A stretch of DNA of 63,675 bases, the filler included, from Nemertoderma westbladi (lineage: Eukaryota; Animalia; Xenacoelomorpha): the NCBI GenBank assembly GCA_032718475.1. It is 4 parts of 4 records of this genome, joined end to end, with 100 filler letters (N's around TTAATTAATTAA, not from the genome) between each part and the next. Parts side by side here need not be neighbours in the genome. Positions count along the whole stretch, not along the records: positions 1 to 29,238 come from JAUCBJ010007840.1; 3 more parts are not named here. One strand, given 5' to 3'. Each line of letters starts with the position of its first letter. Positions within the stretch are counted from its first letter, which is position 1. The position numbers and the translations under genes are program-made. The notes under the pieces are model-generated. The model saw nothing but the letters and a program-made list of their open reading frames with translations, was not told where the DNA came from and did no database searches. This document shows positions 412 through 62,804 of this stretch, in pieces.

Positions 412-1691
412 TGTAAAAGCTTCTGTGGGATGCAACTGGTCCTTCGCCCCGCGATCCAGTTTTTCCCCCATACGCTGAAATACTCTGAAACCTGCTGTAA
501 AAGCGTTTACAGATATAATTGGATCCCCTAGCCCTCGGGGTGCTGTATAAGTGTTTTTAACGGACATAAAATAGATTCTTCTGAATGTGTGCTTTATGCG
601 GACGTAGCAGGGTACACAACCCGCAATGCGGCATTTCACTGTCACTATGTCAAGGGAAGGATTCTGATTACGACATCTCCCAGCTGGATGATGACGTGGA
701 GGGAGCTCTCATTGGACTCCTGGTTCCTTTGTTTTGGTCTAACAACCAATCAGGGTGATTTGCGTTTTCCTTGAAGAGATACCTACAGCAGCTCCCAAAC
801 TCAGTGTTTATGTCGTTCCATACTGCCTGAAGATCGGCTGGAATGACGCAATGTTTCTGCCTTTTTGTAAGAACATTAGTAGGCTAAATTATAGAAAGCA
901 TAGCTATTATCGATTCGATCCGATTCGATTCGACACGATTCCAATTTATAACTTAACGATTCAATGCAATCTAATTATATCTTAACCTACCGTCATACTG
1001 CTTTTACTGTTTGTAATTTTGTATCAGTATAATTGGATGTTATTAGTTGAAGAATATCAATAATCAACCCACATTTTCCCAATATCTTTGATACACTACA
1101 GGTTAGAGAGAAAGGTTATGTACAACAATTGCGACTTTATTATTGTGTTTGTAGTGAATCTAATGTTGTTTGACAGACACTACCTGAGTCCAGTGCATAT
1201 CTCTTTATACCTGATCAAAGTCAGTAACTGTCGGCATATCAGTGAGCAGTGTTGTGCGTTACCGGTAGCGTGCGTGATTGTAAAGTGATTGGATCTGATA
1301 ATAAAGCATTCCTAAAGAATGCGCCCTATGCTTGAAATTTAAGCCATATCGTTGTGTGTAGTATCAGTCATAACTCTGTTTACATAGGTAGAGCGCCGCG
1401 TCCTAAAAGGAACTGCTAATATTTCCCGAAAGTGAATAATATTTGTCAGAGATTATATATTAGTAATCAATCGAATAATACAGTAGGCTTGACCGCAAAA
1501 TAAATTTAAGCCCACGAATCCAGTCTCCCGGTGTTATAAACGGGTCATTTGGACGCGCATGGACTGGCTTCGGCTAATGTTTTTGGTTTGTTTTTGTATT
1601 AAATCTTGTCATCTTATAAAAGGCAGTTTATCAATAAAGACATATAAATTTCGGCAGGTTAAACTGCTGAAGGTCTATAAAAGCGCGTACA
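412..1691 (+). mobile_element. LTR (3' LTR) of an unclassified long-LTR retrotransposon family, copy 1
   Basis: Starts TGTAAAAGC right after a purine tract (GGGAGCGG, 404-411) and ends ...GCGCGTACA, where similarity to the other copies stops. Homologous in reverse complement to 35803-38407 and 59634-60876. Confidence 0.75.
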
Positions 1692-3300: not shown

Positions 3301-4284
3301 TCAATCAAACTTAAAGCGAACTGTGTTTTTCTTAATGCGTGTCCTATGCCGTAAATTTACTGTAGTATCAGAATCCGAGATAGATGGATTAACGCTTTCA
3401 CCCGACGCATTAGTGTATGATGGGCGGAGGAAACGTCTATTTCGCCAGATAACTTGTCCTGATGATGGTAACCGTACATCATAGTCGCGGTGTGTCCCTA
3501 TTTCTGCGACGATCCCGGTTTTGGACCATCTTTTAGTTTTTGGGTTCTGAATGAGAACCCTGGTTCCTGGTTCGAGTAACGGGAGATCACGAGCATTCTG
3601 GTTGTATCGAATCTCGGCCTTCTTTGATTCCCTCCAAGCGACCTCGTTTGCCGAATGGGCCTGTTGTTGCCACTCTTTAGCAAACGATCTGTAGTGTGCT
3701 GGAACCTGTGAACGGAGCGGGTGGCCGTAAACTATTTGGGAAGGTGAACGGCCGTCTATTCTTGGAGAATTCCGAAGTTCTAGAAGGCCACGTAAAAACG
3801 GTTCAGTGTCTATACGACCGTCATCGGCTTTGGCCACGAGGTTTTTCAAAATCCGCACATTAACCTCGGCGTGTCCATTCGATTGGGGGTAGTATGGTGT
3901 GGATGGCTCCCAACGAACGCCCCAGCGACAAAGAAAATGACGAAATTCTTTGGACTGGTATTGGGGCCCCCCGTCCGAACGCATGCGAACGGGTACTCCG
4001 GTTTGCACAAAATATTGACGGACCTGTGCAATAACCTGGGAGGTCGATGGGTCGGATGCCCATCTGGCTATGAATGGGAACCCTGAGAGTCTATCCACGT
4101 ATGTAAGATAACATTTTCCACCACAGTAGAAAAGGTCTGAAGAAACCGATTCAAAAATTCTAGATGGTGGGGGATCAGCAAAGTATGTTTCTTTATGGTT
4201 GCTAGGCAACCGTTCTTGACATTTCACATTGTCTGACTCTATTAGTAAGGTCACTGTTGATTCCAGGCCACTAAACTGATTCAC
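3301..4284 (-). pseudogene. Gypsy integrase core (frameshifted from upstream pol)
   Basis: 327-aa ORF with DDE-region motifs SSDLF, VDRLSGFP, SDGGPQY, PQSNGHAE. Confidence 0.9.
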
Positions 4285-5389
4285 GTGATCGTCGCTTCAT
4301 CCGCTCAATACCTTGATGGGAGTCATGTAAACGGTCAATGACCTCTTTACGGAGTGTTTTAGGAATAATTAATCGTCGGCCAAATATGACAAGGTTATCG
4401 TCTATAGACAATTCATTCCATGTACCCTTCAGCTGTTGTACAAACGAGTTATTAGTAAATGGGAGTGTGAAGATAGTTTTTACAGCATTAATTAGAGCCT
4501 GATAATCCTCATCAGTTGTGGCAACGTTGTTAATTTTCTCTAGAATAGGATCAACATATGGCGGCGATCGATTAAATTCTGAGTCATCTAAGGCTGTAAC
4601 TGCAGCTTGTATAGCAATGGCAGAAATATTCTTCATTATTTTCCCCTCATTTTCGTCCTCCATGTCAGGATCTGAAACGGGGGCCCGGGAAAGAGCATCG
4701 GCGATACAGTGGTCCTTCCCTTTTCGCCATATTAAATTGAAATTATATTCGCTAAGTTTCATTTTAAAATTCTGGATTCGGACATTTTCCACCATATCAA
4801 GAGTATGAGTATTAAAAATCGGCAAGAGGGGGCGGTGATCCGTGACTACTGTGTAATTGGGTAAACCAGACAAATACATTCTGCATTTACGAGTCGCCCA
4901 CAAGATTGCGAGGGCTTCTAACTCAATAGTAGCATATCGAGTTTCCGCTTCGGTGAGGAATCTGGATCCGCATTGAAGTAATCTAAAACTGTCTGAATTG
5001 TTTTGTTTTTGTAGTAATGCAAATCCTAGCTAGACCTTTGGTACGTGACGCATCAGTTTCTAATACTATCTCTGATTTTGGGTTGAATGTTGTTAAAATA
5101 GGGGGGCTGCAAGTGCTTTTTTAACCTCATTAAATGCAGTTTTATGATTTTCAGTCCAAATAAAATCATTCCTCATTTTCATTATATCACGGAGAGGACT
5201 AGCAGCACTACTGATTTCATTCGAAAACGGGGCCAATTGCTGGACCAGTCCCATAAATGATCTCAATTCAGATCGATTAGTGGGTGTTGGAAACTGTGAT
5301 ATTGAATCCACTTTATTGGAGTCAGCCTTAATTCCACAATCAGTGACTATGTATCCAGCAAACTTGACTTCACTTTTAGCAAATTTGAA

Positions 5390-6241
5390 TTACTGCACAT
5401 TTAATGTTATGTTGTGTTTGGCACAACGTTCTAGAACAGTACATATTCTGTCGGTATGTATCTTAAAATCATTATCCTCAACCAAAATGCCATCCACCAG
5501 TCTGTGAATATTTTCTATATCTGACAATACCAAATCATTTCTTAAATTATAAGAATCTCCGGTATTAATATAACCCCTAGGTGCACGGAGAAAAGTAAAC
5601 CGTCCCCAAGGCGTTATAAAACAGGTCAGGTCTCTAGCCTCTGGGTGTAGATCGACTTGCCAATATCCTTTTTTGGCATCTAAGACGTTTAAATATTTGG
5701 ATGTTGAGGAAATGTCAGCTACAACATTAAGAGGTGGATTTGTTGGATGGACTACCCTCTTTATCTGTCTATTAAGGTTTGTGAGATCCACGCACATTCG
5801 AATCCCTCCGTTAGGTTTATTTGCCACAACGAGTGGATGGCACCACTCGGTGGGGCGGTCACCGACTGGTTCAATTATACCACCAGCAACCATGTCATCC
5901 AGCTCCTTCACTTGCTCCCTCCTTGCAAAGGGAATATATCGAGCTGCATGAACTGCAAAGGGTTTAAAATCCGCTTTTAACTCGATCCTCATGGGATCAC
6001 CAATAGTAGAGCCTACCATGCTCCGCAGTTCAATATTTGAATAAAAAACCGTTGTATAATGTTTAATTAACTCCTCGCGAATATTTGTTATTTCATTGTC
6101 GGAAGGATTTTTAGGTAAGTTATTTATCCACTTTGTGCGGGAGGTTTGTACAAAAATAGGTTGAGATCCCTTTTTAAATTTGGGTGTATCAAGGTCTGTT
6201 TTAGATTGACAACCAGAGCATAGGTGAGTCGCAGTTTTCAT
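5390..6241 (-). pseudogene. Gypsy reverse transcriptase fragment
   Basis: RT motifs present, catalytic DD reads DG, and a premature stop follows. Confidence 0.9.
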
Positions 6242-6367
6242 TTCACTGCATAATGGAGGGGGTTTTGGAAAACTCCAAGGAACAATACCTAGTTTTTTTC
6301 ATGTATTGAGGGACAGATACATAAATTCAACATCTTGACTTATTTTTACTTCCTCAATAACCTGTCT

Positions 6368-6481
6368 ACCTACCCTACCCTACCCTACCCTACCCTACCC
6401 TACCCTACCCTACCCTACCCTACCCTACCCTACCCTACCCTACCCTACCCTACCCTACCCTACCCTACCCTACCCTACCCT
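6368..6481. repeat. (CCCTA)n microsatellite
   Basis: Direct reading, about 22 units; truncates the Gypsy protease region. Confidence 0.97.
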
Positions 6482-7667
6482 GGGTGTTTAGTCGAGAGCG
6501 TTGTATATTCTAGAGGTGTGTTTATTCGAGAGAGGTGTTTATGTGAGAGCGTAATATATTCGAGAGAAGTGTTTAGTCGAGGTCGTTATATATTCGAGAG
6601 GTGTGTTTATTCGAGAAGGTGTTTTTATTCGAGAGGAGTGTTTATTTGAGAGGAATGCTTATTTGAGATGTGTGTTTAGTCGAGAGCAGTGTATATTCGA
6701 GAGGGGTGTTTGTTCGAGAGGGGTTTTTATTCAAGAGTGGTGTTTCTTCGAGAGGGGTGTTTATTCGAGAGGGGTGTTTATTTGAGAGCGTTATATATTC
6801 GAGAGAAGTGTTTAGTCGAGAGCGTTATATATTCGAGAGGTGTGTTTATTCGAGAAGGTGTATTTATTTGAGAGGGGTGTTTATTCGAGAGGGGTGTTTA
6901 TTCGAGATTGGTGTTTATTCGAGAGTGGTGTTTATTTCAGAGGACTGCTTATTCGAGAGGAGTGTTTAGTCGAGAGCGTTGTATATTCGAGATGTGTGTT
7001 TATTCGAGAGGTGTGTTTATTCGAGAAGGGTGGTTATTCGAGAAGGTGTTTTTATTCGAGAGGAGTGTTTATTTGAGAGGACTGCTTACGTGAGAGGTGT
7101 GTTTAGTCGAGAGCAGTGTATATTCGAGAGGGGTGTTTGTTCGAGAGGGGTTTTTATTCGAGAGTGGTGTTTCTTCGAGAGGGGTGTTTATTCGAGAGGG
7201 GTGTTTATTTGAGAGCGTTATATATTCGAGAGAAGTGTTTAGGGGTGTTTATTCGAGGGGGTGTTTAGTTGAGGGCGTTGTATATTTGAGAGGTGTGTTT
7301 ATTCGAGCGAGGAGGGTGTTTATTCGAGAGGTGTGTTTATTCGAGAGGGGTGTTTATTCGAGAGCTGTGTTTATTTGAGAGGGGTGTTTATTTGAGAGGA
7401 CTGCTTATTCGAGAGGAGAGTTTAGTCGAGACCGTTGTATATTCGAGAGGTGTGTTTATTCGAGCGAGGAGGGTGTTTATTCGAGAGGTGTGTTTATTCG
7501 AGAGGGGTGTTTATTCGAGAGCTGTGTTTATGTGAGAGGGGTGTTTATTTGAGAGGACTGCTTATTCGAGAGGAGTGTTTAGTCGAGACCGTTGTATATT
7601 TGAGAGGTGTGTGTTTATTCGAGAGGGGTGTTTATTCGAGAGTGGTGTTTATTCCAGAGGTGTGTTT
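6482..7667. repeat. Degenerate ~16-19 bp minisatellite (GTGTTTATTCGAGAGG core)
   Basis: Dozens of variant units with longer-range duplicated blocks; ends abruptly at the Copia LTR. Confidence 0.9.
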
Positions 7668-7868
7668 TGTTATATTTGAATAATAATCAGTTTGATCGAG
7701 TTATTATATTACAGTTTAACCAATATATATAGTCAGACAGTTGAATCCAGTTAGATATAGAATCATGAACTGTAGCCTACTGATTACCGGTACGCGGTAA
7801 CCATACTACCGTACCTATATCAGCCAACAACACATACCGTCATCCAGGTACTGTCTACAGTATTAACA
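7668..7868 (-). repeat. Copia 3' LTR
   Basis: Direct repeat of 12952-13152, 8 mismatches in 201 bp by eye. Confidence 0.95.
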
Positions 7869-8049
7869 ATCTTCCGTTTCTTTCCTTTTTAGTTTGTTCC
7901 ACAAATAAATTCTAACTATAAAAAAAAACTATTCTGGCCATAAGTCAATTATGGTCTTAAGTTTCAACTTGTACAAATACAAATCGGATAGTCATTCAAT
8001 TAGTTACTTTCAGTTTGTTACATTCATTGAAATTTATGCTATCGGCTTG

Positions 8050-11000
8050 TCAAACATGACCAGTTAGATTTTCCAAAAGCTCATACATCACAAACGGGTC
8101 GTTCAATATGCGTTTTAATAAAACAACGGACTGACTTTTTGCTTTGGTCAGTGTATCAGCAATCTGCAACTTTGTTGGAATCCATTTCAGTTTTTTTAAT
8201 ATCAACCACGAGTTCTTTAATAAATGCAAAGTCAATTGCCAGTCGTTTCTCTATCGGAATCTTCCCATTATATAAATCCTGAACCAATCCTTTGTGATCG
8301 GAGTAAAAATGACAATCAATTAGATCAGATCGCAATATAGACTTCATAAACATCTGAATATATCGACCCATATCGACACCCTCTACCAGGGCAAACGTCT
8401 CGGCAGATAATGTACTTTTAGTAACACGCCGACAACAACGGCTAGCCCAATATAACAAATAATGTCCCCAGAAAATATAGATAGCTAAGCGAGACGGGTT
8501 ACCAAACGAAGAATCAACGAATATATAAAGATTAGGAATTGTTGAACGCACTGCTTCGGGAGGATCTGCGGTTTCTGGATGGTAATATTTCAATATAACC
8601 TTTTCAGACTTTATCTTCCTTACTGTTTTGTTTAATAACGCGATATCGTCCGCGTTTGGAGAGTTAATCTGAGATAAACTCCCTACAATAAATCCGATAT
8701 CTGGTCTAGTGTTTGTTGAAACCCACATTAGCTTCCCCAATGTTGATTTGAAATATGATTTGCACGATAACTCACTATCTTTGTCAATAACCTCAAAATC
8801 AATGCCTTCAATATACTGTTCTTGTGATATTTCATAACTACCATTATCTAGCTGGCGAATGCATACTCCCAGAAACTTAGTCCATGTATCTTTGATTCGC
8901 CGGACTTTACCCACTTTCAACAAATGTGCAATGCCTTCACGAACCTTAGGAAGACCATTCACACCACCTATGAGAAGGTCATCAACGTGTGTTGCTATCA
9001 TACCAACAAGTCTATCATGTTCATCATAATTTGTATACAACGCTGGATCAAATTGGTTTTGAAAGTTACCCAGTACAAACAGCTCTTCCTGCAACTTATG
9101 ATACCAATACCTACAGGCATCCTGTAACCCATAGACGGCTTTATTTAATTTCCAGAATACATTCGCAGCTTTGATTTCTTTTGATTTGGTGCTTAATTTG
9201 TTTATGTACTCTGGAGGTGGTACAGCATAAATAACTCGATCACTTTCAAAGTTATTACTCTGAAGAAAGGCCGTTTTAATATCAATGACCCACAAATCCC
9301 ACTTAAATAAAGAAGCCATGGATAACAGAGTTCGTATCGATGTCTTGTCACAAGTTGGCGAAAATGAGATTGGATCTTCTTTATCCTGAAATCCTTTAAC
9401 TACCAAACGGGCCTTTGTAAATTTTATACCTTCCACATCTTTCTCCGTAATAACCCAGCGAGTCTGAACAATATTAGCTTTACTAGGAACTTCATAGACT
9501 TCCGTATATACATCATTCTGCAGCCAGTTTAACAGTTCCTGTTCCTTGGCTGCCTCAGTGTCTAGCAAAGGTGTAGGTCTTTGTTCGCCAAAATAACCAT
9601 AGAACTCTGGCGGTTTGCGCTCTCTTGTAGGATATTTCGAAGAAACTTCCGAAAGAATTGGTTCTTCCATGACCTCACAATTATCAATACTAGTCGATTC
9701 CATAGACGGCATCATTGCGTCATCGTAATTAGCACTGGACGCATTCAAATCGTCAGAGTATGACTCAGAAGTTGAACCATTGGGATTGACTTGTTTGACT
9801 TTATTTATCGCCGGTAATTCTTCTGGATCAGAAGTGCCAACACTTCCTGAGTGGCTATAATCTTCAACTATCATGTCTGTGTCTTCGGTTTCTTTGAACT
9901 CACTTCCAAATCCCAGTTTGGCACTATCGTGTAGCTTAATTTTTGATCTATGACAACGGATATAGCGAGAGCCATGACCAACAAGTATTTCCGAACCTTT
10001 AACAGCAACAACCTTCGCTGGACCACACCACTTGCCCGCAGTGTTATAATAATATACTGCATCTCCATTGACAACCTCACTATTAGATGGTCGTATGTTT
10101 CTTTGTAATGCTCTACGAACCCGACTAGAAGCATCCGATTTTGCAAATTGTTCCCTCACATCATTCAACAAAGCGATATGTTCAATAACAGATTTGCTAA
10201 CTGATTGTGAATTATCTAAAGCACATAAGTTGTCCGTCAAAACTCCTCCTATATTCGGGCCCCTGCCAAACATTATTTGGTGTGGAGAAAAGCCATTATG
10301 ATTTGGCCAAGCATTCTTTACAAACGTAGCCATAGTTAATATTTTATAATCAGAATAGCTCTGATTATCCGATTTTATTCGACAATATATATCCTTAATT
10401 AAACCATTATGTCTCTCCGTTATTCCGTTGCTGAATGGAGAGTATGGTGCCGTAACATCATGTGTCATATTAAGCTTATTGCACAACTCAGTAAAGCTTA
10501 TAGCAACGAACTCACCACCATTATCTGTGAAGACTGATTTGTTAGGTGGACCAAAAATAGAATACCATTTATCCAATAATGCACTCTGAACACTTGTGGA
10601 CAATTTATTTGGCAGTATCATTGTCATACTATAGCGAGAGAATAAGTCTACAACGTGAAGAACAGGCTTACCATGGCTGTAATTCAACTCTTCCATAAAA
10701 AATAAATCTAAACCGATAATATCGTTACATGTTTTGCCAAGAGGCAGTGAAACAATTGGATTAGATGGTTTTCTTCTTCCATGTATTTTACATTCAGCAC
10801 AATCCTTCATTACTTCATCAACAAAAGTTATATAGGACTCACCAACAAACAAGCCAGACTGTTCGATCAGCTTAATTAGCGTTTGTTTCGATGGATGAGC
10901 GAACTGTTTATGAAGTTTCAGAATCTCCTTATATGATAACTGCAATTGAGATTTCGGATTCTGCAATTTCCCACGTTCGGTTTCACTAGAATCGATGTGA

Positions 11001-12469
11001 TTATCACCGTTGTCAGCTCTTTTATCAGCTGTATCTGTGATTAATGCAGTATTAATAAGCCTTTCACCTGGAATTAGTGGAATCGCACAGTGACCAGATA
11101 TTAACTCAACAAGTTGCACTGCTGATCCATTAATTGTTGCAATATTTGCCGAAATATCTAGCATTACCTGAAGTTTGGCCATTGTTGGTCGAGAGAGTAG
11201 TAGTGGCAATGATCCCTCTATAACGTCAACAGATATTTTATACGTAATATCATTAACCGGAATATCAAGAATATAGTTCTGTTTTGCAATAATCTTTTCT
11301 TCTCCACCGCCGAATATATATACTGAATAAGTGGTACGAGAAGAAGGATTTACATTGAATATAGCCTTATAAGTTTCAAGCCATTCAGTTCCAGAAACAG
11401 TCTTCGTGCAAGCAGTGTCCAAAATGGCATAAATGTCAGTTGTTTTTCTAATGAAGTTATTAGTTTTCTTGGTCGGTTTTGCAAGAAACACGCTATTTTT
11501 AAACAGATGTTTAAGAAAGTAAACATTTCGTTCATTATCTCCAGAATCTTCTCTACACCCAATGAGCATCTTTTCATTATCAGATTCTGATTCATTATGC
11601 GGACAGAGATCATCTGTATGGAGTACAGACTCACATACATTACATTGAGATTTATGGGGACAATCCCGTTGAAAGTGATATATCGAATCGCAGACTCGGC
11701 AGCGGTTGTTTTTATTAGGGCCCTTGACATTTGAATTAGTAAATGGTAAAGGTAGTTTGCTGGTGTTTATCGAGTTTGGCTTAAACGATCTACCGGTGCC
11801 AGTACCTAGGTTGGATTTGGATTGAAAACGTGACGGTTTCTTATTCCTAAAATTAGCCTCCAAAGCAATTTCAGTTTTTAGTTCTTCGGAATCAAATCTC
11901 GATTCATCGGTGCCTAACTTGGAATTACCAGATCCAATATCCGACATCATTCTCAAAATATGTCGTTTCACGTCATTAAATTCAAGTTTAGCAGTTGCCA
12001 AAATCATTTTGCGCTCACTATTACTTAAATTGGATTTATGTATCAATTCGGCCGCCAAAATAGAATCGTCAAACGTAAGACCAAATTCTTTTAGGTTACT
12101 CACCATACTCTCGAATTTTATCACAAAGTCACGCACATTTTCATTGGAATTTCGACAAAAATTCCGAAATATAACAAAATTGTTGTAGGCATCTTCCTCT
12201 TTTTCTTTTAAAAACGTTTCATCCAATTGTCTAATAAGAGAAGCTAAACCGCCATCCACCGCTAATGCGGGAACGTCTAAGTCCAAAGCTTTATCTTTGG
12301 CAACACCACGAAGATTAAGAATTACTGTAGCTGCTTGTTTCGCCGCTGAAGTTTCTGTTATCGATTCCCAAACTAAGATTTCTTTCTTCCACCGACGATA
12401 GTTTGGATTCTTTCCAGATGGATCAAATACGGGAGGTGGTATACGATTTGAATTATTACCCGTTGCCAT
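8050..12469 (-). CDS. Copia gag-pol polyprotein (1437-aa ORF plus frameshifted RNase H tail)
   Basis: Two CCHC knuckles (CRVCDSIYHFQRDC, CNVCESVLHTDDLC), protease LDTAC, integrase HHCC and TDNGGEF, RT KARLVVKGFQ / DIKTAFLQ / HVDD, RNase H. A frameshift in the T-run near 8191 separates the ...QIADTLTK tail ending at 8050. Confidence 0.93.
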
Positions 12470-12951
12470 ATTCTGATTACAGGATTGCCGTTAATCGTAG
12501 TATGTAAACCAGAAACACCTTGTCTGCAGTCACCGGTACGGTAGGCCTAGCACCTAGGGTAGGCCTAGCACCTAGGCCTATACAATCAGACGGTACGGAT
12601 CAACTGGCACTGTCGTTTCGTAGGAATTATCAGTGAGGTTGACAGGTTGAAATGTACCGGTACGGTACCGTAGGCTACCGTACAGAAGTTCCAGAATGCC
12701 AGAAATCCCTGCGAAAAATTGATTCTCACAATACCGATAGGCCTACCGGTAAATAATTAAGAAAGCGTCATCACGCCAGATCCGCCATCACGGAATTGAG
12801 GTTAAACGTTAAACGTCGAACTGGAGCGCCATCACGCCTGCGCCATCACGCAGAATTCAAATGTACCGTCAGACCGTAAAAAAAAACTTGCGCCGTCACG
12901 CCTGCGCCATCACGCATTTAAACCGTAATAAAGTGTAAGCTCTGCTACCAT

Positions 12952-13152
12952 TGTTATATGAGAATAATAATCAGTTTGATCGAGTTATTATATTACAGTT
13001 TAACCAATATATATAGTCAGACAGTTGAATCCAGTTAGATGTGGAATCATGAACTGTAGCCTACTGATTACCGGTACGCGGTAACCATACTACCGTACCT
13101 ATATCAGTCACTAACACATACAGTCATCCAGGTACTGTCTACAGTATTAACA
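12952..13152 (-). repeat. Copia 5' LTR
   Basis: Adjacent to the iMet PBS with a 1-nt spacer. Confidence 0.95.
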
Positions 13153-17614: not shown

Positions 17615-20600
17615 ACGATTTCGCCGAAGATTATTGTTGGTCACAAGGTCTGTATACCATACTACAGGCTTACGATATTGAAGGAGCTGATATTCCATAT
17701 CCTGGAGTTATTCCTGAAGAATTTCCCCCTTGTTTTCCAGGTAGGATTACTTACCCATAATGATTACTTATACTTTCGCACGTACCGGTGTAGTATAATT
17801 CTTACACTAATCTTACATTAAATGTAGCGCAATTAATTCTGTTTAGGTTTCCAAACCAAAGATGGGAGACAAGTTGTTTGTCCTCGTTTGGATGATATAA
17901 AAGGACCAACACGAATCTACCATCTGTGGTACCAATGGGTACCTTTCTACTTCTTTGTCACCGCTTCTACTTACTACATTCCCTATCTACTCTATAAGGT
18001 CTGGGGCATGGCAGAGATAAAAAAGGTGCTGGAGATGCTTCATTGTGTCATTGAAGATGAAACTGCTACGGAAAAAAGCGTGAACAAGGTAAAAAAAAAC
18101 CGCGAACATGTTAAAAAATAACCGCGAACAAGGTAAAAAACCGTGAAAGAGTAAAAAAATAAAGTAGGAAGAAGTCGAATAAGATGAGAATGAGTATAAT
18201 AAGCCGTCAATAAAATTAAGAATAAAATAAATAAAGCGTATAAAGCGTATAAAGTGGGATAAAATTGAATAGTCTGAGAATAAAGGAAAATTAATAGTAA
18301 AAAGGAATAATATCTCGTTGGAGAATATAAAGCTTCTGTGGTTTGTAACTGGGATATAAAGCGTTGGTAAGGGATATAAGAAATATGAATTAGTATGTGT
18401 AAAAGTAATGCATATCTTAGAATGGTGTGGAATATAGAAAATTAACAAAGTTTATCAATATATTTTACTACGAATTTGTCGACTTGGAAATGACTTCCTA
18501 TAAATTCATAACAAACGCCGCTGAGAATAAAAATAATTAGATAGTTGAGCCATGGCGATTTCACCTATGTCTAGGTGGCTGCTCTGTTGGACAACACTGC
18601 TGGACACCGCAGTTGGGCTGCCCTTGTTGTTAGTGGCAATTTGTCACACACATTCGCACTATAAATCATCGCATCGTCATAAATGCATAACTCCTCCAGT
18701 CAACAGTTGAAAGATAATTAAGTTCAAATAGAAATAAATTATTTTGAAATATGGAAAGGCCTGAAGATTAGAGTAGGCCTAGTTCTAACAGCTCTAACGT
18801 AATTTACATTAATACGAAGCTACTTTATGTGACGATGGTGTTAGGGATGTGACGATTTCTCCAATATTATATTTAATAGGTGGCTGCCTGGCTTTACATC
18901 ACTATGAGATCATATATCCGCTCGCCTAATATCATCACATCCCTTGCCTACCGATGTCGCATTGCCATGGTTATAATCTTTATCAAGTCAATATACCTCA
19001 CAGTTTCCCTGACAACCTTCTATTTCACATCACTTATGTTTAAGGTAAGCAATAATTAAGCATACAGTTCTACATATAACTATTTTACAGAATCAACTTT
19101 ATTTACTGTGTAAACTTCTGGTACCTAATGAAGTACATTTTAAAACCAGGAAATTTCGGAATTAAAATGAAATTTCGGAAATTAAAAATGCCAAAAACGA
19201 ACAATTATTATCGCCAATTCACCACAGCAAAGACTTTTGAAGACTTTTAAAGCAAAGACTTTTAAAGGAATTAAACTTATTTTGTTTTTCATTCGACCAT
19301 ATTTTCTCATTACAATTATATAACTATTCAACATATGACTGCTCAGCTCATACGGATTCATAAAAATCCATAACGGAAAGAGACATACTGTATATCACAA
19401 ACCATCGGTGTTAGCAAACCTTAATTAAATATATACCGGTACCTGTGGAACAATACGGCTTCTATCCTTGGATTTCTGCTATTGCTAGTGTGCAGTGTCT
19501 CTTTTAGGACATCACTTCTTGCTTAAATTCCCACAACGACGGCCTCTGTTTTCTATGCAGCGTTTGTTGATTTTCGTAACTCTTTTGATGTGATAACTGG
19601 AATAGTTCCAAACCAAAATTAGCCCTGCTGCTCCTAAAAACGATAATAATTGCAGAACAATGCAATAAGGAAAACAATAAATATAGTATTAACAAGAATT
19701 AATTATATTAAATATTAATATTATATAATAATATTTTTTATATATTTTATGTATTGTCATTGCTAAAGAAAAAATCTCGCCACTACTGTGAAAATCGTTG
19801 ATATTATATACACTGTGTGATTTGGCCTATCATAGGATACAGCTATACTAGCACATTCCTAAATATACCAGGAACCACCCTACTTTAAATGTTGTATGAC
19901 CACTTATATTATACGAGTTTTATCTTAGGTTGGGGATTTTTTAACCTATGGTTATGATTGGGCGGTTGCTCTGCGAATGGGAATCCATGTTCCTGGCGGA
20001 AAGCTCTTCCCGAAAATGGTCGCATGCGAGATTCGCCACTGGGGTCCCACAGGTTAGTCTATTCTACAAGAGTCAGAAGTCCACCAACTGGGTCCCACAG
20101 GTTAGTCTATTCTACAAGAGTCAGAAGTCCACCAACTGGGTCCCACAGGTTAGTCTATTCTACAAGAGTCAGAAGTCCACCAACTGGGTCCCACAGGTTA
20201 GTCTATTCTACAAGAGTCAGAAGTCCACCAACTGGGTCCCACAGGTTAGTCTATTCTACAAGAGTCAGAAGTCCACCAACTGGGTCCCACAGGTTAGTCT
20301 ATTCTACAAGAGTCAGAAGTCCACCAACTGGGTCCCACAGGTTAGTCTATTCTACAAGAGTCAGAAGTCCACCAACTGGGTCCCACAGGTTAATCTATTC
20401 TACAAGAGTCAGAAGTCCACCAACTGGGTCCCACAGGTTAGTCTATTCTACAAGAGTCAGAAGTCCACCAACTGGGTCCCACAGGTTAGTCTATTCTACA
20501 AGAGTCAGAAGTCCACCAACTGGGTCCCACAGGTTAATCTATTCTACAAGAGTCAGAAGTCCACCAACTGGGTCCCACAGGTTAGTCTATTCTACAAGAG

Positions 20601-23600
20601 TCAGAAGTCCACCAACTGGGTCCCACAGGTTAGTCTATTCTACAAGAGTCAGAAGTCCACCAACTGGGTCCCACAGGTTAGTCTATTCTACAAGAGTCAG
20701 AAGTCCACCAACTGGGTCCCACAGGTTAGTCTATTCTACAAGAGTCAGAAGTCCACCAACTGGGTCCCACAGGTTAGTCTATTCTACAAGAGTCAGAAGT
20801 CCACCAACTGGGTCCCACAGGTTAGTCTATTCTACAAGAGTCAGAAGTCCACCAACTGGGTCCCACAGGTTAGTCTATTCTACAAGAGTCAGAAGTCCAC
20901 CAACTGGGTCCCACAGGTTAATCTATTCTACAAGAGTCAGAAGTCCACCAACTGGGTCCCACAGGTTAGTCTATTCTACAAGAGTCAGAAGTCCACCAAC
21001 TGGGTCCCACAGGTTAGTCTATTCTACAAGAGTCAGAAGTCCACCAACTGGGTCCCACAGGTTAGTCTATTCTACAAGAGTCAGAAGTCCACCAACTGGG
21101 TCCCACAGGTTAGTCTATTCTACAAGAGTCAGAAGTCCACCAACTGGGTCCCACAGGTTAGTCTATTCTACAAGAGTCAGAAGTCCACCAACTGGGTCCC
21201 ACAGGTTAGTCTATTCTACAAGAGTCAGAAGTCCACCAACTGGGTCCCACAGGTTAGTCTATTCTACAAGAGTCAGAAGTCCACCAACTGGGTCCCACAG
21301 GTTAGTCTATTCTACAAGAGTCAGAAGTCCACCAACTGGGTCCCACAGGTTAGTCTATTCTACAAGAGTCAGAAGTCCACCAACTGGGTCCCACAGGTTA
21401 GTCTATTCTACAAGAGTCAGAAGTCCACCAACTGGGTCCCACAGGTTAGTCTATTCTACAAGAGTCAGAAGTCCACCAACTGGGTCCCACAGGTTAGTCT
21501 ATTCTACAAGAGTCAGAAGTCCACCAACTGGGTCCCACAGGTTAGTCTATTCTACAAGAGTCAGAAGTCCACCAACTGGGTCCCACAGGTTAGTCTATTC
21601 TACAAGAGTCAGAAGTCCACCAACTGGGTCCCACAGGTTAGTCTATTCTACAAGAGTCAGAAGTCCACCAACTGGGTCCCACAGGTTAGTCTATTCTACA
21701 AGAGTCAGAAGTCCACCAACTGGGTCCCACAGGTTAGTCTATTCTACAAGAGTCAGAAGTCCACCAACTGGGTCCCACAGGTTAGTCTATTCTACAAGAG
21801 TCAGAAGTCCACCAACTGGGTCCCACAGGTTAATCTATTCTACAAGAGTCAGAAGTCCACCAACTGGGTCCCACAGGTTAGTCTATTCTACAAGAGTCAG
21901 AAGTCCACCAACTGGGTCCCACAGGTTAGTCTATTCTACAAGAGTCAGAAGTCCACCAACTGGGTCCCACAGGTTAGTCTATTCTACAAGAGTCAGAAGT
22001 CCACCAACTGGGTCCCACAGGTTAGTCTATTCTACAAGAGTCAGAAGTCCACCAACTGGGTCCCACAGGTTAGTCTATTCTACAAGAGTCAGAAGTCCAC
22101 CAACTGGGTCCCACAGGTTAGTCTATTCTACAAGAGTCAGAAGTCCACCAACTGGGTCCCACAGGTTAGTCTATTCTACAAGAGTCAGAAGTCCACCAAC
22201 TGGGTCCCACAGGTTAGTCTATTCTACAAGAGTCAGAAGTCCACCAACTGGGTCCCACAGGTTAGTCTATTCTACAAGAGTCAGAAGTCCACCAACTGGG
22301 TCCCACAGGTTAATCTATTCTACAAGAGTCAGAAGTCCACCAACTGGGTCCCACAGGTTAGTCTATTCTACAAGAGTCAGAAGTCCACCAACTGGGTCCC
22401 ACAGGTTAGTCTATTCTACAAGAGTCAGAAGTCCACCAACTGGGTCCCACAGGTTAGTCTATTCTACAAGAGTCAGAAGTCCACCAACTGGGTCCCACAG
22501 GTTAGTCTATTCTACAAGAGTCAGAAGTCCACCAACTGGGTCCCACAGGTTAGTCTATTCTACAAGAGTCAGAAGTCCACCAACTGGGTCCCACAGGTTA
22601 GTCTATTCTACAAGAGTCAGAAGTCCACCAACTGGGTCCCACAGGTTAGTCTATTCTACAAGAGTCAGAAGTCCACCAACTGGGTCCCACAGGTTAGTCT
22701 ATTCTACAAGAGTCAGAAGTCCACCAACTGGGTCCCACAGGTTAGTCTATTCTACAAGAGTCAGAAGTCCACCAACTGGGTCCCACAGGTTAGTCTATTC
22801 TACAAGAGTCAGAAGTCCACCAACTGGGTCCCACAGGTTAGTCTATTCTACAAGAGTCAGAAGTCCACCAACTGGGTCCCACAGGTTAGTCTATTCTACA
22901 AGAGTCAGAAGTCCACCAACTGGGTCACACAGGTTAGTCTATTCTACAAGAGTCAGAAATCCACCAACTGGGTCACACAGGTTAGTCTATTCTACAAGAG
23001 TCAGAAGTCCACCAACTGGGTCCCACAGGTTAGTCTATTCTACAAGAGTCAGAAGTCCACCAACTGGGTCACACAGGTTAGTCTATTCTACAAGAGTCAG
23101 AAGTCCACCAACTGGGTCCCACAGGTTAGTCTATTCTACAAGAGTCAGAAGTCCACCAACTGGGTCCCACAGGTTAGTCTATTCTACAAGAGTCAGAAGT
23201 CCACCAACTGGGTCCCACAGGTTAGTCTATTCTACAAGAGTCAGAAATCCACCAACTGGGTCCCACAGGTTAGTCTATTCTACAAGAGTCAGAAGTCCAC
23301 CAACTGGGTCCCACAGGTTAGTCTATTCTACAAGAGTCAGAAGTCCACCAACTGGGTCCCACAGGTTAGTCTATTCTACAAGAGTCAGAAATCCACCAAC
23401 TGGGTCACACAGGTTAGTCTATTCTACAAGAGTCAGAAGTCCACCAACTGGGTCCCACAGGTTAGTCTATTCTACAAGAGTCAGAAGTCCACCAACTGGG
23501 TCCCACAGGTTAGTCTATTCTACAAGAGTCAGAAGTCCACCAACTGGGTCCCACAGGTTAGTCTATTCTACAAGAGTCAGAAGTCCACCAACTGGGTCCC

Positions 23601-25725
23601 ACAGGTTAATCTATTCTACAAGAGTCAGAAGTCCACCAACTGGGTCCCACAGGTTAGTCTATTCTACAAGAGTCAGAAATCCACCAACTGGGTCACACAG
23701 GTTAGTCTATTCTACAAGAGTCAGAAGTCCACCAACTGGGTCCCACAGGTTAATCTATTCTACAAGAGTCAGAAGTCCACCAACTGGGTCCCACAGGTTA
23801 GTCTATTCTACAAGAGTCAGAAATCCACCAACTGGGTCACACAGGTTAGTCTATTCTACAAGAGTCAGAAGTCCACCAACTGGGTCCCACAGGTTAATCT
23901 ATTCTACAAGAGTCAGAAGTCCGCCAACTGGGTCACACAGGTTAGTCTATTCTACAAGAGTCAGAAATCCACCAACTGGGTCACACAGGTTAGTCTATTC
24001 TACAAGAGTCAGAAGTCCACCAACTGGGTCCCACAGGTTAATCTATTCTACAAGAGTCAGAAGTCCACCAACTGGGTCCCACAGGTTAGTCTATTCTACA
24101 AGAGTCAGAAGTCCACCAACTGGGTCCCACAGGTTAATCTATTCTACAAGAGTCAGAAGTCCACCAACTGGGTCCCACAGGTTAATCTATTCTACAAGAG
24201 TCAGAAGTCCACCAACTGGGTCCCACAGGTTAATCTATTCTACAAGAGTCAGAAGTCCACCAACTGGGTCCCACAGGTTAGTCTATTCTACAAGAGTCAG
24301 AAGTCCACCAACTGGGTCCCACAGGTTAGTCTATTCTACAAGAGTCAGAAGTCCACCAACTGGGTCCCACAGGTTAGTCTATTCTACAAGAGTCAGAAGT
24401 CCACCAACTGGGTCCCACAGGTTAGTCTATTCTACAAGAGTCAGAAGTCCACCAACTGGGTCCCACAGGTTAATCTATTCTACAAGAGTCAGAAGTCCAC
24501 AACTGGGTCCCACAGGTTAGTCTATTCTACAAGAGTCAGAAGTCCACCAACTGGGTCCCACAGGTTAGTCTATTCTACAAGAGTCAGAAGTCCACCAACT
24601 GGGTCCCACAGGTTAGTCTATTCTACAAGAGTCAGAAGTCCACCAACTGGGTCCCACAGGTTAGTCTATTCTACAAGAGTCAGAAGTCCACCAACTGGGT
24701 CCCACAGGTTAATCTATTCTACAAGAGTCAGAAGTCCACCAACTGGGTCACACAGGTTAGTCTATTCTACAGGAGTCAGAAATCCACCAACTCGGTCCTA
24801 CAGCACTGCAGGTCATGTATTATACAATTACAGCACCTCGACTTACTCACTATAATATATTTAAACTTTTCTCCACCTTTAGGTATCGAAGAGGAGCAAG
24901 GTATGTGTCTGCTAACCCCCAATGTTATTAACCAATACCTGTTCCTGGTTCTCTGGTTCGCAATGGTGTTTACCATCATTACAAACACTATATCGTTGAC
25001 TATAACCCCGCTCTCCATGTGTTGCGTTAAATTCTCATACGGGAGATTTCGAGCACATTCATTATTACCAGAAAATGAAACAATATGGTTAATATACAGG
25101 TGTGATATAATTATCTAACAACTACGCAGTCCTTAAAGGGACATCATACAGTACGTTATACCACGCGGCAATAGCTAACGACCGCGGAGCACGAGTTATA
25201 GCTACTATGGGAGTTATCACGGGCCCCAGGCTAGCTACCACCCGGCTCCGTGAGCCTACACTTTAAACTTTTATAAAATGTTGAATTATATAATGACATT
25301 TATATTTTAAATAACATTTTTGTAACTAAACTTTTCGACCACTACAATACAGTATATTGTAGTATACATATATAGAGCAATATATGCATGCAAAATTTTT
25401 AAGTAATTAATAGGAGACGTAACTTATATATTTGTGTTTAAACATGAAATTTTAACTAAATATTTCGCAAAATGCCGAATTAATAATTAATTTCTTGTAA
25501 TCAGTGCATCATCACAATGCTTGTATTATTGCAACACATATGTATTTGTTTCAACTTAGGGAGGTCGGAGCTAGTGGACGCATTGTGCTCAACATGGTCG
25601 GCAACAGTTGTAAACCCAAACTGTTTGAAGATGTCATGGACAAACTGGTAACAAAGATGAAAGACACCAGAGTTCTAGTAAACAGAATACGGGTTGTAAA
25701 GAAAACAACAACTGTTGCAGTTTAA
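17615..25725 (+). CDS. Innexin (gap junction/pannexin family), six exons; N-terminal exon(s) not found
   Basis: Phase-compatible GT-AG exons 17615-17740, 17847-18088, 18880-19044, 19929-20052, 24883-25099, 25560-25725. Motifs FAEDYCWSQGLYT, PYPG, HLWYQWVPF, LFPKMVACEIRHWGPTGIEEEQGMCLLTPNVINQYLFLVLWF, GASGRIVL; stop at 25725 and AATAAA about 25 nt downstream. Confidence 0.92.
20053..24803 (+). repeat. 48-bp tandem array (99 units) filling an innexin intron
   Basis: Unit GTTAGTCTATTCTACAAGAGTCAGAAGTCCACCAACTGGGTCCCACAG; 4751 bp = 99x48 minus one 1-nt deletion near 24500. Confidence 0.97.
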
Positions 25726-29338: not shown

Positions 29339-31193
29339 CCGCCGTCTCTCGTCCACCCATTCGACCGCCGAAGCGGGAGTCCGCCAACGTTGTAGCGGGC
29401 GGACGAGGGACAACGGGCGACAAATCAGTAATATTTCGCTCGGGGTCCAGGACCTGAACTGTCGCCTGGGCAGTTCTACTGGGCACAGGTAGCTTAGTGC
29501 TATGTAGAGGGAATTTAGAAGTAGCTTCAGGGAGCACAGGTGTGTCTATCACCGAAGGGGTGATTTCAAGAACAGGCCTAATTATTTCAGGCTCATCTAC
29601 TATAGTAGGGAGTCTTTCTATTGTAATTATTTGGTCTGTGGGCTCTGTACTACCTAAGTTGGTGTTATTTAGTTGCCTTCTAACAGCTGGAGGCAAATCA
29701 GGCAATTTCTGACGGTGGAATGTTCTTTTACGTCTGCTTAGGCGAGATCGATTTCTTCCGCCTTCAGTGTCGGTGGTATCGCCTTCCTCAGATGATGTAT
29801 ACCCCTGTCTCTTGGGAGTAGATCGACTCATCATCCGCATATTGCTCGCTGTTAACTGTTTATTGAAGTTGTCCTGCTTCTCTTGAAGAATTTCCAACTC
29901 TAGTTGGGTTGCCTCTTCAGATGCCCTCCGTTCTGCTTCTACCACTGCCTCTGCTATTGCCAGTGCCGCTTTTCTTTCGGCTTCTGCCGCTGCCACTGCT
30001 GCTGCCACTGCCGTTGTCTTTCTATCTTCTATACGTTTTTTCTTTACTTGTTCTTCTTGTTCTCTAGCGATGCGGAGTTGTTCATCGAATTTAGCTTGGT
30101 TCGCCGCTAACCTATCCACATCAATCGCATCTAACACGAGTTTGGCTCCTTCGCTATTAGGGCTAAGTCCCTCTAGCCTTCTCCTCAACTCTTCATCTCC
30201 CAAAAAACGCTGATAGTCTGACAGATAGATATCAATGGCATCCTTCTTATGCGGTTTCTCTGCCGTCGCTTCACTTTCCACTTGGGAAAAAGTAGCGTCC
30301 GTCGATTCTCCATGGGTTGAGCGCTCCTCCAACTGAGCTTTCCACCGAGCTGCTCCTTGAACCTGGCGACTCACCCGTTGAAACCAAGTTTTTACGGCAA
30401 CTTGCAACGACGTGTCTTGTTTTCTTTTAGAAGCCTCCTCAAAGGCGGATAAGATTAGCCTAATCCGCAAAACTCTTTCTCTAACTTGATAAAGCAGCGA
30501 TCCCTGCTCTTGAGGTCCTTGAGGTTGTTGAAAAAGTTGCTTTTCTACTCGCTCCATAGAGCTGAAGAATCCCTGTGCGTATCCGGCTGCGGACCTCTTC
30601 CACACAGCTGGATCGATGGTTTCCTTGGCTACTCCCATCCGGTGTATGTCTTCCCAGGCAGCTTCTGATAAATCAAACGGGAGTCCGGGTCCGGGGAAGT
30701 TCCATTGCGACTCGACAATAGACTTCAGTTCTTCACTCGTGTATCCCGCGTAACTATCTCTAGTTGACCGTTGACTTCTCGCCCAATCGATCTGGTGTTC
30801 TTCCACCGCGATCAATAACCCAGCGAGCACGGCTGCAGGAAGGATGAGAAGGGGATCCGTATAAACCGCATCCGTCATCTCTGTTCCGCGCTCGAGCGTC
30901 AGCTCTACAGTATCCTCACTACTGGAGCTGCTGGGCCGCTGAGGAATAGATTCTTGACTAGCGGGTTGTTGCTGTTCCGCGGCTTGTTGGTCCCGCTTGA
31001 CCTGAGCTCGGGTGCCTATGATAGACCTACGATGTTGGACTAGCCTAGGTTCTGTTATTACTACTGGAGGGATGACCTTCCTCACAGTGGGAGGTGAACT
31101 GGATTTACGACCAGACGGTTGTACGTCTCTATCTGAGTCGCAGATAGTTACATCTAATATACTGTCTGACAGGTTCTGCTTAGTATCAGACAT
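29339..31193 (-). CDS. Long uncharacterised ORF (at least ~618 aa, 3'-truncated by gap), probably ORF1/gag-like of the long-LTR element
   Basis: Intronless open frame with Glu/Ala/Lys-rich coiled-coil-like middle and Ser/Pro/Thr-rich ends; same strand as and downstream of LTR 35803-38407. No diagnostic motif recognised. Confidence 0.65.
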
Positions 31194-32601
31194 GACTATG
31201 TATACCGCTGAATGTCTACTGCTGTATTACAGTCTGAGTAAGTCTAGTAACTCAGTATTAACTGCTAGCCTAGTAATTAATTACCGGTACTGCTACTCAG
31301 TGTAGCGTGATATATATAATATATTAAATACCGGTATGCTTATAGTATATATAAGTATATAAGTATTATTACAGACTAGGTTTATCACAGAATACCGGTA
31401 TAATTTTAGCACAAATATATATAAATATATAATAGGCCTATCGGAATACCGGTATACAGCTTACAGTTTGTAGTATATATAATTCTGGAATAGAATTAAT
31501 TACAAGTACCGGTATAATTTCAGCCTAGATTTATAGAAATAAATAATAGGCCTATCGTAAATACCGGTATATCAATTATTTTGGAATAATTGAATTTCTG
31601 AACTTTAGGGTTACTTGGTTACTTTAACTTACTTTATTACCGTTATTTAAGCAGTAATCCAACTGATATTGAGACCTAATGGTTGTATGGTAGGCCTACT
31701 ATTTATAAATCGTTAGATTTGATTTATAATATATATATACCCGTTTTAATGGGTTTTGTCAATGTTTGAAATAAATGTTATTATTTCTGGGGAGTAATCA
31801 CTACACAAAGCGGTGCGCTTTCAGTGAAGTGTTACTTATAGACACTAAAACAAATATTACTAATTTACCTAAGTTACTTAATACTACAAATTACGTACAA
31901 TTCGGGTGAGATTACAATCTCTAAATAAATGCAAAAATTTACAAAAAACACAAAATACGAATTTTTAGGGTAATTTTACAAGAAGTCTACAAACCAGCCT
32001 AACAAAGGGTTAGAAAACTGGTTATTACAACGGACAGGGTACTGCGGTATTTGAAAATAATACGTAGTAGTAAATACACTGCGTTGTCCAGATAGAAAAA
32101 TACCACCGCCTGACGACCTATAGCCGTATCGCTATAGGTTCTACGTTATGTATCACGGAGTGTTCCTACCTAGAAGTTAATAGAGCTAATCGAATGTGCC
32201 TATCAACCACTTTACAACACAAATATAATGCCTACACTAATTATTTTCGGAAAGCACTGTACACTAAACCCTAAATTAGGTACGAGTACTTGTACAACAG
32301 ATAATCAGTAATTAAATATACTTGAACAGCTAAAAGAACCACGGCATCTGCTGGAGTGACCGATGCACAAAATCACCAGTCTTTACCTACGCCAAGCAGC
32401 CCGTGTAGTACCGAGGTTAATTTAACTATAGCGGTATGTATAACAAACACAATTACTGTAGGAACAAACTTGGGGACTTGAATGTTGCGAATAATCGCAT
32501 AAACTCTGAATAATAAATATTACGCTACGCGTACAAACCACTCAAACAAAAATGCAGACTAAATACTGACAGACTACTATCAAGCCTAAATAAACTACAG
32601 G

Positions 32602-35316: not shown

Positions 35317-35802
35317 TCAAGCCTAAATAAACTACAGGACATGCAGACTCCGAAATAGTTAGGTAGTATGCGTTCTAACCCAGTAGTATGACTTATTCTT
35401 TAATTGGGGGTTTACTTTACAGCAATGGCTACCCCAACTTCCCAACCGTTCTTTATCGGACAGGTGACCTACACACACTGCAATTCGTTCGGACTTAACA
35501 GCAATCAGACAACAGCTCAGCCTACAAATTGTCTGTACAATCTGATCAGGCTTACACGCCTTCTGTTCAATACTGGCCTACAAACAAATAAAACTTGACA
35601 GAAATAAGTAAAAATCTCAATAAAAAACCAGGGCTGCAGTCCCTGATTAATTATTAAGGCCTACCGGTATATAATAATCAAAATCGAATAATACTGCTGT
35701 AGGTACCGGTCCGGATGATCAGGCTGTCAGGCCTACTGGTTACCGGTCGACCGGTACTTTCGACTTTATTGCTTACTGCAATAAAGAAGCAATATCCGTT
35801 AT

Positions 35803-38407: not shown

Positions 38408-39572
38408 CTTATTAAATCAACTACAGAGTATTTTAATGTAAAAGATAATAAAAATAACGGGGCAATTCAGCAAAGGCTTTTACATCTTCATAAAACTTGA
38501 CTGCTTGTTCTAGCTCTGAGGCATTGGTTGGACTGTAGCAACATATAATTGTTGCCTTGGGATTCCCATCAAATGTTGCGATCATAACCCTGGAATTTAT
38601 AGATTCGATGTTGTTTAGGGTCTTAAGTGCAAATGGGCTTAGCAGTCTGTTAGGCAGTTTCTGTCGGTTAGGCAGTTTGTTCTGTGGTTAAATAAATGTA
38701 GATAATTTGGAAGACCAATGTACATAAAAATCAGCCTTACGCTGCCGGTGCAATAAGTCCACTTTTCCTCAAGCAATGACTATTCCATTTCAATCGTTCA
38801 TAATCTAAAGTTTGTCTGCTTGTTGCAATTGTGTTGCAGTTTGAATGCTTGTCGCAATGGAGCTTTTAGTAGTTTCAGTTTTCAACTGCTGCTACTATGC
38901 CTCCAAATCACACAAAGTCGCCAACCAATCCTTATTTTTGTGATGATTGGTTCAGATTGTGCAATTCAGGAGTTTCACGATGTTGATGCCATACTGCTGT
39001 ACTGCCGTAGCCGTACCATGTACTGACGTCCGGTACCGTTGCATAATTCAATACACTGCAATAATTTACGGTATCATCAGATAGTGGTGCACTTCTGCAC
39101 TTTGACCACAAGCGAAAATACAGAAATAGTGATCTTCAGCGCCAATTGACCGCAAGTGAAATAATGTATATAGTTTATTGTTTTGATTAGAAAACACCGC
39201 CACTGTAACCTGTTCCTTTCCCTTAATGTTTTTAATTAAATTAAACCAATTTTTAAAAGCCACTAAAATTTATTTTGTGTTTGCGGTCATTTCGCGCAAT
39301 TGACTCCTGCACCACAGAACCACCAGCCTCAGAGCCTGCCAGCTGCATGTCAACACATTTATAACGTACTGACAGGCCCTACATGCCCTACTTGACCCTG
39401 CCCACGGAAGTTATAGCCTACAATAACACTACCGCACCGGTATTGTATGGGTATGGTAGGCCTACTGCCTGACAGCTGAGCTAGTCACTAGTGAGCTAAC
39501 CGTTACCACCGTACGACGTACCGGTACCGGTACCATACCAGTCAACTGGTCAAACAGTACCGGTACTTGGAA

Positions 39573-42349: not shown

Positions 42350-42583
42350 GAAGAAGCCTTCAATATATAACATACTCAATGTGTCAGCAAAATTTCACAA
42401 GAATAATATACTTAATTGCGAACTGAATCATGAAAATGAAACTAAATTAATGATCTAAATCTTTATGGTGTATTTTATGTTCTACCTTTGCACCAAGCAC
42501 ATTTACTTTGATGTTAAAAATGTAGATTCATTAATTAACATAAACACACAATGGGAGATATAAAAAAATGCAGAGAGGAGTAT

Positions 42584-59555: not shown

Positions 59556-59633
59556 TTATAAACTGTTACTGTTCGACAGAACAGTATTAAACTGTATTTA
59601 ATGCTTACACTGCAATACAAGATAAACTGTTAC

Positions 59634-62761: not shown

Positions 62762-62804
62762 TTTGCCGACAGTCGTTTCACCCTCACGGGCTTCTTCAGG
62801 GCTA
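62762..62804 (-). ncRNA. Minimal type I hammerhead ribozyme (inverted copy)
   Basis: Reverse complement of 62935-62977. Confidence 0.8.

Follow-up and report, generated by a model that had tools for sequence, protein, structure and literature searches.

The repeat at positions 412-1691 (+) is best explained as the long terminal repeat (LTR) of an animal retrotransposon, whose RNA probably primes its own reverse transcription in a Tf1-like manner, with the covarying stems near the LTR end likely acting as scaffold. This reading is derived from the letters of the DNA, in which a stretch inside the LTR is complementary to a site directly behind the 5' LTR, so that the transcript is likely to serve as its own primer. 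The analyzed DNA, referred to as the window, comprises 63,675 nt from Nemertoderma westbladi; the family analysis was based on the three copies in the window as well as on contigs from public runs aligned to copy 1. The initial annotation had described a structured RNA of ~400 nt at the end of a long-LTR family and had listed self-priming among four conceivable functions. Conservation and covariation were largely found as described, but the stems represent only the right half of the object and conservation begins near 1060 instead of 1305. Self-priming gained direct sequence support from a primer and a site that both lie outside the coordinates covered by that annotation.

LTR copies, their ends and their surroundings

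All three copies are TG...CA repeats of 1.24-1.28 kb, sharing an identical 9-base start and an ACA end. Copy 1 (412-1691, +) has 1,280 bases and is read as a 3' LTR. Copy 2 (35803-38484, -; ~1,235 bases) is a 5' LTR interrupted at 36167-37608 by an insertion and lies within an endonuclease fragment of what we take to be a LINE, a label based on motifs instead of a family match. Copy 3 (59634-60876, -) is an intact 5' LTR of 1,243 bases inside a broken BEL/Pao pol. The coordinates and letters reported earlier for copy 1 proved exact, and the two further copies were present at the places given for them (reverse complement of 35803-36166 and of 59634-60035). The insertion in copy 2 is non-coding, measures 1.44 kb, is bounded by perfect terminal inverted repeats of 29 bp and shows a target duplication of 5 bases.

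Past position 1691, the summed depth of public runs X1 and X2 drops from ~1e5 to 30, thereby fixing the right LTR end independently by copy 1. Single contigs reached depths of 16,588 and 20,191 compared with 30 in the flank of copy 1, suggesting hundreds of near-identical copies in several subfamilies, with depth not being equal to copy number. The flank at 1692-1760 had a depth of ~30 in runs X1 and X2 and was uncovered in X4 and X6, which could be due to insertion polymorphism or low coverage. A contig of run X5 over 1290-1462 showed a single difference from copy 1 up to 1462 and diverged thereafter, suggesting recombination between subfamilies inside the conserved core.

Related sequence continues beyond the CA in copies 2 and 3, for which reason these two are taken as 5' LTRs, while copy 1 is considered a 3' LTR. 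Directly before copy 1, a short purine-rich tract resembling a polypurine tract (404-411, +) abuts the LTR start, being absent before copies 2 and 3. The similarity of copies 2 and 3 stops ~40 bases past the CA, within a stretch holding a hairpin and a poly(A)-like hexamer. Together with an internal coding region not being linked, this would suit a non-autonomous unit of 1.3 kb that is not an LTR, ends 40-60 bases further and is cut short in copy 1, its complementary ends serving circularization or a DIRS/Penelope-like step. We consider such a unit quite improbable, as the TG...CA ends, the purine tract abutting copy 1 and the stop of copy 1 exactly at the CA argue against it, beyond copies 2 and 3 neither a target duplication nor a return to host sequence was detected, and the complement to the LTR begins right after the CA in both of them.

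Target duplications were found at none of the three copies, and a solo-LTR reading was rejected on this ground. Copy 3 interrupts the BEL/Pao pol mid-domain (broken Peptidase_A17 frame) and is followed by the primer site, which fits an insertion; since copy 3 sits in a BEL/Pao pol and copy 2 in a LINE fragment, neither neighbor names the superfamily. The end of copy 3 is ~80 bases away from an assembly gap, where its final 18 bases are repeated.

Searches of the frames before copy 1 and downstream of copy 2 revealed no coding region attributable to the LTR. The decayed frame 5' of copy 1 (62-382, +) had neither a Pfam match nor a homologue among longer proteins, and its last 60 residues are BEN-like by eye, with Pfam and homologue searches being negative. 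No chromodomain was detected before copy 1 (no Pfam match at E <= 1 in six of six frames of 1-411, a short and decayed stretch). Downstream of copy 2 and on the same strand, an open frame of >600 codons (29340-31193, -) runs into a gap and has a coiled-coil-like middle without a Pfam match; a 246-residue part of it gave no match in 1.84 billion proteins. The motif TACCGGTA was considered as a link between these two frames and dropped, occurring 20 times across the window.

The genomic context is repeat-rich, with gypsy, copia, BEL/Pao, and LINE pieces as well as large satellites. A copia-type element (7667-13152) carries one open frame of 1,444 codons and 202-bp LTRs that are 96% identical, and a gypsy-type pol in three frames (3301-6298, -; reverse transcriptase, RNase H, integrase) is flanked by CCCTA arrays at 2521-2750 and 6369-6481. 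Further features are a 48-base tandem array of ~100 units (19945-24855), open in two frames over 1,500 codons, and a near-perfect 345-base palindrome (62697-63041), 95% identical to its own reverse complement. The sole cellular gene of the window encodes phosphatidylserine decarboxylase, present as two intron-free copies (39495-41012 and 42564-43448) of a 1.7-kb duplication (97.6% identical) and a third fragment near 44241-44675; its top matches, from echinoderms, molluscs, arthropods, and chordates, are 41-47% identical. The short palindromes TACCGGTA (20 sites) and TAGGCCTA (15 sites) are distributed across the window and cluster at 12532-12745, 31282-31562, and 39436-39867 before open frames of unrelated genes or elements, perhaps constituting a promoter signature of the N. 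westbladi genome.

Complementarity of a putative primer, guide helix and leader

Starting with the first base past the CA, copies 2 and 3 show an exact reverse complement of a stretch of their own LTR, extending over 11 and 12 bases, respectively. The primer-binding site of copy 2 (35792-35802, -) is complementary to its self-primer at 38009-38019 (-) and that of copy 3 (59622-59633, -) to the self-primer at 60368-60379 (-), the primers being located 466 and 498 bases into the respective LTR. The remaining 10 of 12 pairings between an LTR piece and a downstream sequence comprised 4-6 bases only, and among control positions 69 of 115,874 (copy 2) and 21 of 115,854 (copy 3) had such a match. Both primers are aligned with each other and differ in 5 of 11 columns, each of which is changed on both sides. 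Duplex energies amount to -12.2 and -13.5 kcal/mol for the own combinations of copies 2 and 3 versus -2.8 and -5.0 for the crossed ones. The aligned stretch of copy 1 (900-910, +) is the putative self-primer and 5' end of its RNA; from primer to LTR end, the copies span 792, ~770, and 746 bases. The primer site is carried by two copies, the structure by three. A search for tRNA genes found none, none of the three copies is followed by a TGG of a tRNA site, and for the 5' LTRs of copies 2 and 3 this covers the first six bases past their end.

Contigs of the public runs add to this picture. The 12 letters of the copy 3 site recur in another sample (run X4), opening a loose contig end, which shows that the site is not merely an artefact of the nearby assembly gap. 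A loose end shared by two contigs of X6 agrees at 9 of 11 positions with the copy 1-derived prediction of the site and at 8 of 11 with the site of copy 2, and being close to both, it does not discriminate between them. One X5 contig continues past 1691 with letters that fit neither of these sites and may represent flank. With respect to transcription, a CCAAT box is located in the putative U3 (746-750, +), 154-182 bases before the primer position in all three copies. No conserved TATA box was found 30 bases before the primer in the three copies, leaving a start near the primer without this support; if transcription began later, the primer would stay untranscribed.

The primer has a second partner within the LTR. 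A guide or decoy strand at 1297-1303 (+) pairs with 905-911, i.e., the last six primer bases and the following C, and its counterparts are found at 37625-37631 (-) in copy 2 and 60038-60044 (-) in copy 3. Contigs of the public runs contain at least two additional variants of the guide. This guide helix consists of seven Watson-Crick pairs in each of the three copies, with three double-sided changes. In an exhaustive helix search, for which the criteria were fixed after the data had been seen, it ranked top of the left half and was equaled in 1 of 400 shuffles. The duplex is predicted to extend inward, the own pairs being the strongest in copies 1 and 2; the extended duplex of copy 3 reaches -20.6 in its own and -22.2 in a crossed combination, the own one thus not being the strongest. 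While bound to the guide, the primer is unavailable to the primer site and its first 5-6 bases stay unpaired, an arrangement suggestive of toehold displacement. For copy 3, the two states have predicted energies of -162.6 and -160.6 in a model that leaves out pseudoknots, and their near equality is a weak argument for a switch.

The position of the guide also invites a bolder reading, in which the 400-base domain behind it is a large ribozyme of a new class that frees the primer with a 3'-OH and needs no RNase H. The primer would be docked on the guide helix in a way similar to the 5' exon of group I and II introns. In favor of this, the predicted cut falls within the covarying guide of seven pairs, which immediately precedes the most conserved domain; this domain holds an invariant GAAA and two CCTAAAG-type motifs, presumably resembling tetraloop/receptor contacts. 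We nevertheless regard it as highly improbable: only weak and unrelated matches were obtained among 4,227 Rfam families, known intron and ribozyme models included, a U-G wobble is absent at the predicted cut, and the cut in Tf1 is made by RNase H (PMC7175516).

Splice-like sites are located on both sides of the scaffold. The left conserved block (1060-1240, +; 113 of 184 columns invariant) contains a splice-donor-like site at 1102 in all three copies. Acceptor-like sequences are a pyrimidine-rich stretch ending in CAG in the leader of copy 2 (35776-35791, -) and a stretch likewise ending in CAG in that of copy 3 (59610-59621, -), the CAG lying 16 and 12 bases behind the primer site in two of two copies. 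Both stretches are at the same time strands of a putative leader duplex, and pairing by itself could account for the conservation of the donor-like and acceptor-like sites. Among the matches listed for run X6, which is RNA by guess only, no joint spliced from 1102 appeared. The opposite strand of the putative leader duplex is located at ~1490-1503 (+), its counterparts in copies 2 and 3 being complementary to the leader that follows the primer site. The complement between leader and own LTR comprises 8 bases in copy 2 and 10 in copy 3 at matching places; with a cross-copy control reaching 9 and a local hairpin competing, this downstream duplex is suggestive only.

Covarying stems, terminal pseudoknot and conserved core

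Stem (a), including its inner hairpin and the loop at 1553-1558, extends over 1515-1572 (+) and comprises 11 pairs around one 1x1 mismatch, of which four are variable, all kept and two changed on both sides. Hairpin (b) (1650-1671, +) has eight pairs, the three variable ones all being kept and one being changed on both sides. Hairpin (c) (1306-1322, +) was borne out in copies 1 and 3, and its halves still form five pairs in copy 2, where the loop holds the 1.44-kb insertion. For the proposed hairpin (d), the GAAA hexamer is indeed invariant, but a single C-G pair closes it, the next pair is mismatched in all three copies, and covariation is absent. The pseudoknot (e) between the loop 1553-1558 and the LTR-terminal strand 1683-1688 (+) was reproduced as a 6-pair helix with one double-sided change. 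Together, stems (a), (b), and (c) and the pseudoknot (e) comprise 30 pairs, of which 10 are variable among the three copies; all 10 stay paired, five of them by double-sided changes. This count leans in their favor, as the helices had been picked for pairing, and with three rows it is reached by 26 of 500 shuffles and is weak by itself. In the exhaustive search, a helix equal to stem (a) occurred in 0 of 400 shuffles and one equal to the pseudoknot in 7 of 400.

Consensus folding (alifold) was tested against column shuffles over 21 folding windows. Two of them stood out, namely 1489-1590 (z -3.55; antisense also -2.72) and 1591-1691 (z -5.0 sense, -0.7 antisense), each with 0 of 60 shuffles as low, and the remaining 19 were weaker, the next one having a z of -1.74. 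No signal was detected over 1313-1532 in all three folding windows (z +0.1 to +0.5), and the folding energies of the single copies were ordinary in comparison with shuffles (z -0.65, -1.33, and -0.71). Two further candidates were discarded: a helix of 1607-1610 with 1639-1642, formed in all three copies of the window but broken in a multi-copy contig, and a presumed Sm site at 1646-1654, which is occupied by the pairing of hairpin (b), a double-sided change included.

A multi-copy contig from another sample differs from copy 1 over 1433-1690 by three substitutions and two gaps, none of which falls into the pseudoknot strands; the version of copy 1 is thus characteristic of a subfamily instead of being a pair of mutations private to this copy. 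Another contig has the copy 1 loop version in a copy-2-like context, its coverage leaving out the partner strand. By analogy, the pseudoknot is likely the duplex upstream of the primer site, one of those flanking it. The initial annotation had held the RNA to be unassignable to a known family. This held for Rfam, as the search it had proposed returned no family match; the pseudoknot, however, fits the ‘pretzel’ mechanism of Tf1, and the RNA as a whole is therefore not unassignable. A long leader with 9-10 upstream ATGs and a pseudoknot at the end would also suit an internal ribosome entry site (IRES) in the core, which would allow translation after the capped primer is cut off. We rate this as extremely improbable, since no IRES family matched, a duplex at the primer site suits the position of the pseudoknot better, and splicing would bypass the need.

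The most conserved block of the LTR is the core at 1345-1485 (+), with 110 of 141 columns invariant (78%), among them the GAAA motif at 1427-1432, and with neither a folding signal nor an Rfam match. Within the whole window, Rfam gave zero matches at the gathering score, and the regions of the three copies gave three, one, and two weak unrelated matches (E 2-9.6; 4,227 families, E <= 10). A pattern scan of metagenome contigs returned 31 loci without any match to the family profile, the best E being 0.78, and scans of viral contigs returned zero, one, and zero loci, the sole match lying inside a phage coding frame without further likeness. A group I intron was rejected as candidate, the presumed R- and S-like motifs coming without a conserved P7 partner or Rfam match.

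The high conservation of this core is left unexplained by self-priming and counts against that model. As a guess, packaging is the best candidate for its role and catalysis the boldest. The entire structure might mainly be a packaging/dimerization signal as in retroviral leaders, with the GC-alternating loop of stem (a) pairing two RNAs; splicing would remove the signal from the mRNA, and such a function is compatible with self-priming. A core that is 78% invariant without a folding signal is what a protein-binding surface might look like, it lies between the donor-like and acceptor-like sites, covariation is blind to whether pairing occurs within or between RNAs, and retroviral kissing loops are GC-rich palindromes (PMC4588261). 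Against this, the loop hexamer is not palindromic and covaries with the LTR end instead of itself, and the complement of primer and site is left unexplained. As an account of the structure as a whole, packaging/dimerization is thus unlikely, and it is the likeliest role for the core 1345-1485.

For the preferred reading, Tf1-like self-priming, we propose the following course. Transcription would start near 900 (copy 1 numbering), and of the first 11-12 bases, the 3' half would be held on the guide 1297-1303, leaving 5-6 bases free. These could act as toehold for the primer-binding site ~770 bases downstream, whereupon the guide would be displaced. The loop of stem (a) would grip the last LTR bases, with a strand around 1490-1503 perhaps holding the leader past the site, resulting in a three-duplex ‘pretzel’ as in Tf1. 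Next, the reverse transcriptase/RNase H of the element would cleave the RNA after base 11-12 and prolong its 3' end. Splicing from the donor-like site at 1102 to the acceptor-like one behind the primer site would free the mRNA of the entire scaffold, restricting priming and packaging to unspliced RNA.

Comparison with known self-priming systems

In Tf1, the RNA's initial 11 bases pair with a site that follows the LTR, and RNase H cleaves between bases 11 and 12 (PMC7175516); in the ‘pretzel’, sequence adjacent to the site forms two additional duplexes with the LTR (bioRxiv 10.1101/2022.12.06.519325). The sources consulted on self-priming (PMC6317226, PMC3601003, PMC7175516, PMC4600332, PMC5341516, PMC2864245, PMC5445492, PMC5408684, bioRxiv 10.1101/2022.12.06.519325), place it in fungi, vertebrates, and non-seed plants (Tf1/sushi, Tcn1) as well as in the TAR lineage of plant copia elements. 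No report of self-priming in an invertebrate was found in the literature searched on self-priming and LTR structure. A high-copy self-priming family in a divergent animal would widen the range of the mechanism, and the superfamily of this family would separate inheritance from reinvention, with one review proposing self-priming as the ancestral start of reverse transcription in LTR elements (PMC3601003). How such an RNA chooses between translation and priming could be explained, in a testable way, by the second, covarying partner of the primer. As the family appears to number hundreds of copies from several subfamilies, one genome would suffice for a covariation analysis in depth and for a probing map.

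Several retroelement groups share parts of this architecture. The TAR lineage of plant Ty1/copia (Houba, Osr-1) represents predicted self-priming outside Tf1/sushi (PMC6317226), from which the mechanism appears to have arisen more than once; TAR elements belong to plant copia. Retroviral 5' leaders (RSV with its U5-IR stem, HIV-1) likewise have a structured U5 paired near the primer site (PMC3601003) and may decide between mRNA and genome fate (PMC4588261, PMC5192399), but are tRNA-primed in the accounts consulted and have no sequence or Rfam likeness to the present LTR. In the fungal copia element GalEa, a ‘conserved hairpin site’ also replaces the tRNA site by a conserved paired structure; it is a short local hairpin with a palindrome, for which its authors report no LTR complement, whereas a complement is present here (PMC5445492).

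The closest systems are the Tf1/sushi chromoviruses (Tf1, Tf2, Tj1, Tosmo1-3, Tcry1, sushi-ichi, Tcn1; PMC4600332, PMC6317226). In common with them, the present family lacks a tRNA site, has an 11-12-base site after the CA of the 5' LTR complementary to a stretch within the LTR, and shows a duplex between LTR end and U5 flanking that site, a second one between the leader behind the site and U5 being suggestive only. In contrast to their fungal, vertebrate, and non-seed plant hosts named in these accounts, the host is the divergent animal N. westbladi, and no chromodomain was found in the short decayed stretch 1-411. The RNA probably works like the self-priming structure of Tf1; membership in the Tf1/sushi clade is a separate claim, with no pol being linked. 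A tentative and rather doubtful reading is that self-priming by a toehold switch is found here in a lineage other than the chromoviruses, for instance BEL/Pao. According to the available descriptions, the LTR of 1.24-1.28 kb compares with 406-414 bases in Tcry1 and a mean of 572 in the Sushi set, the leader of ~770 bases carries several extra domains, and the second covarying primer partner as well as the splice-like sites around the scaffold occur here and not in the consulted parts of the Tf1/sushi descriptions. Set against Tf1, the giant leader, the guide helix with its covariation, and the highly conserved core are additional.
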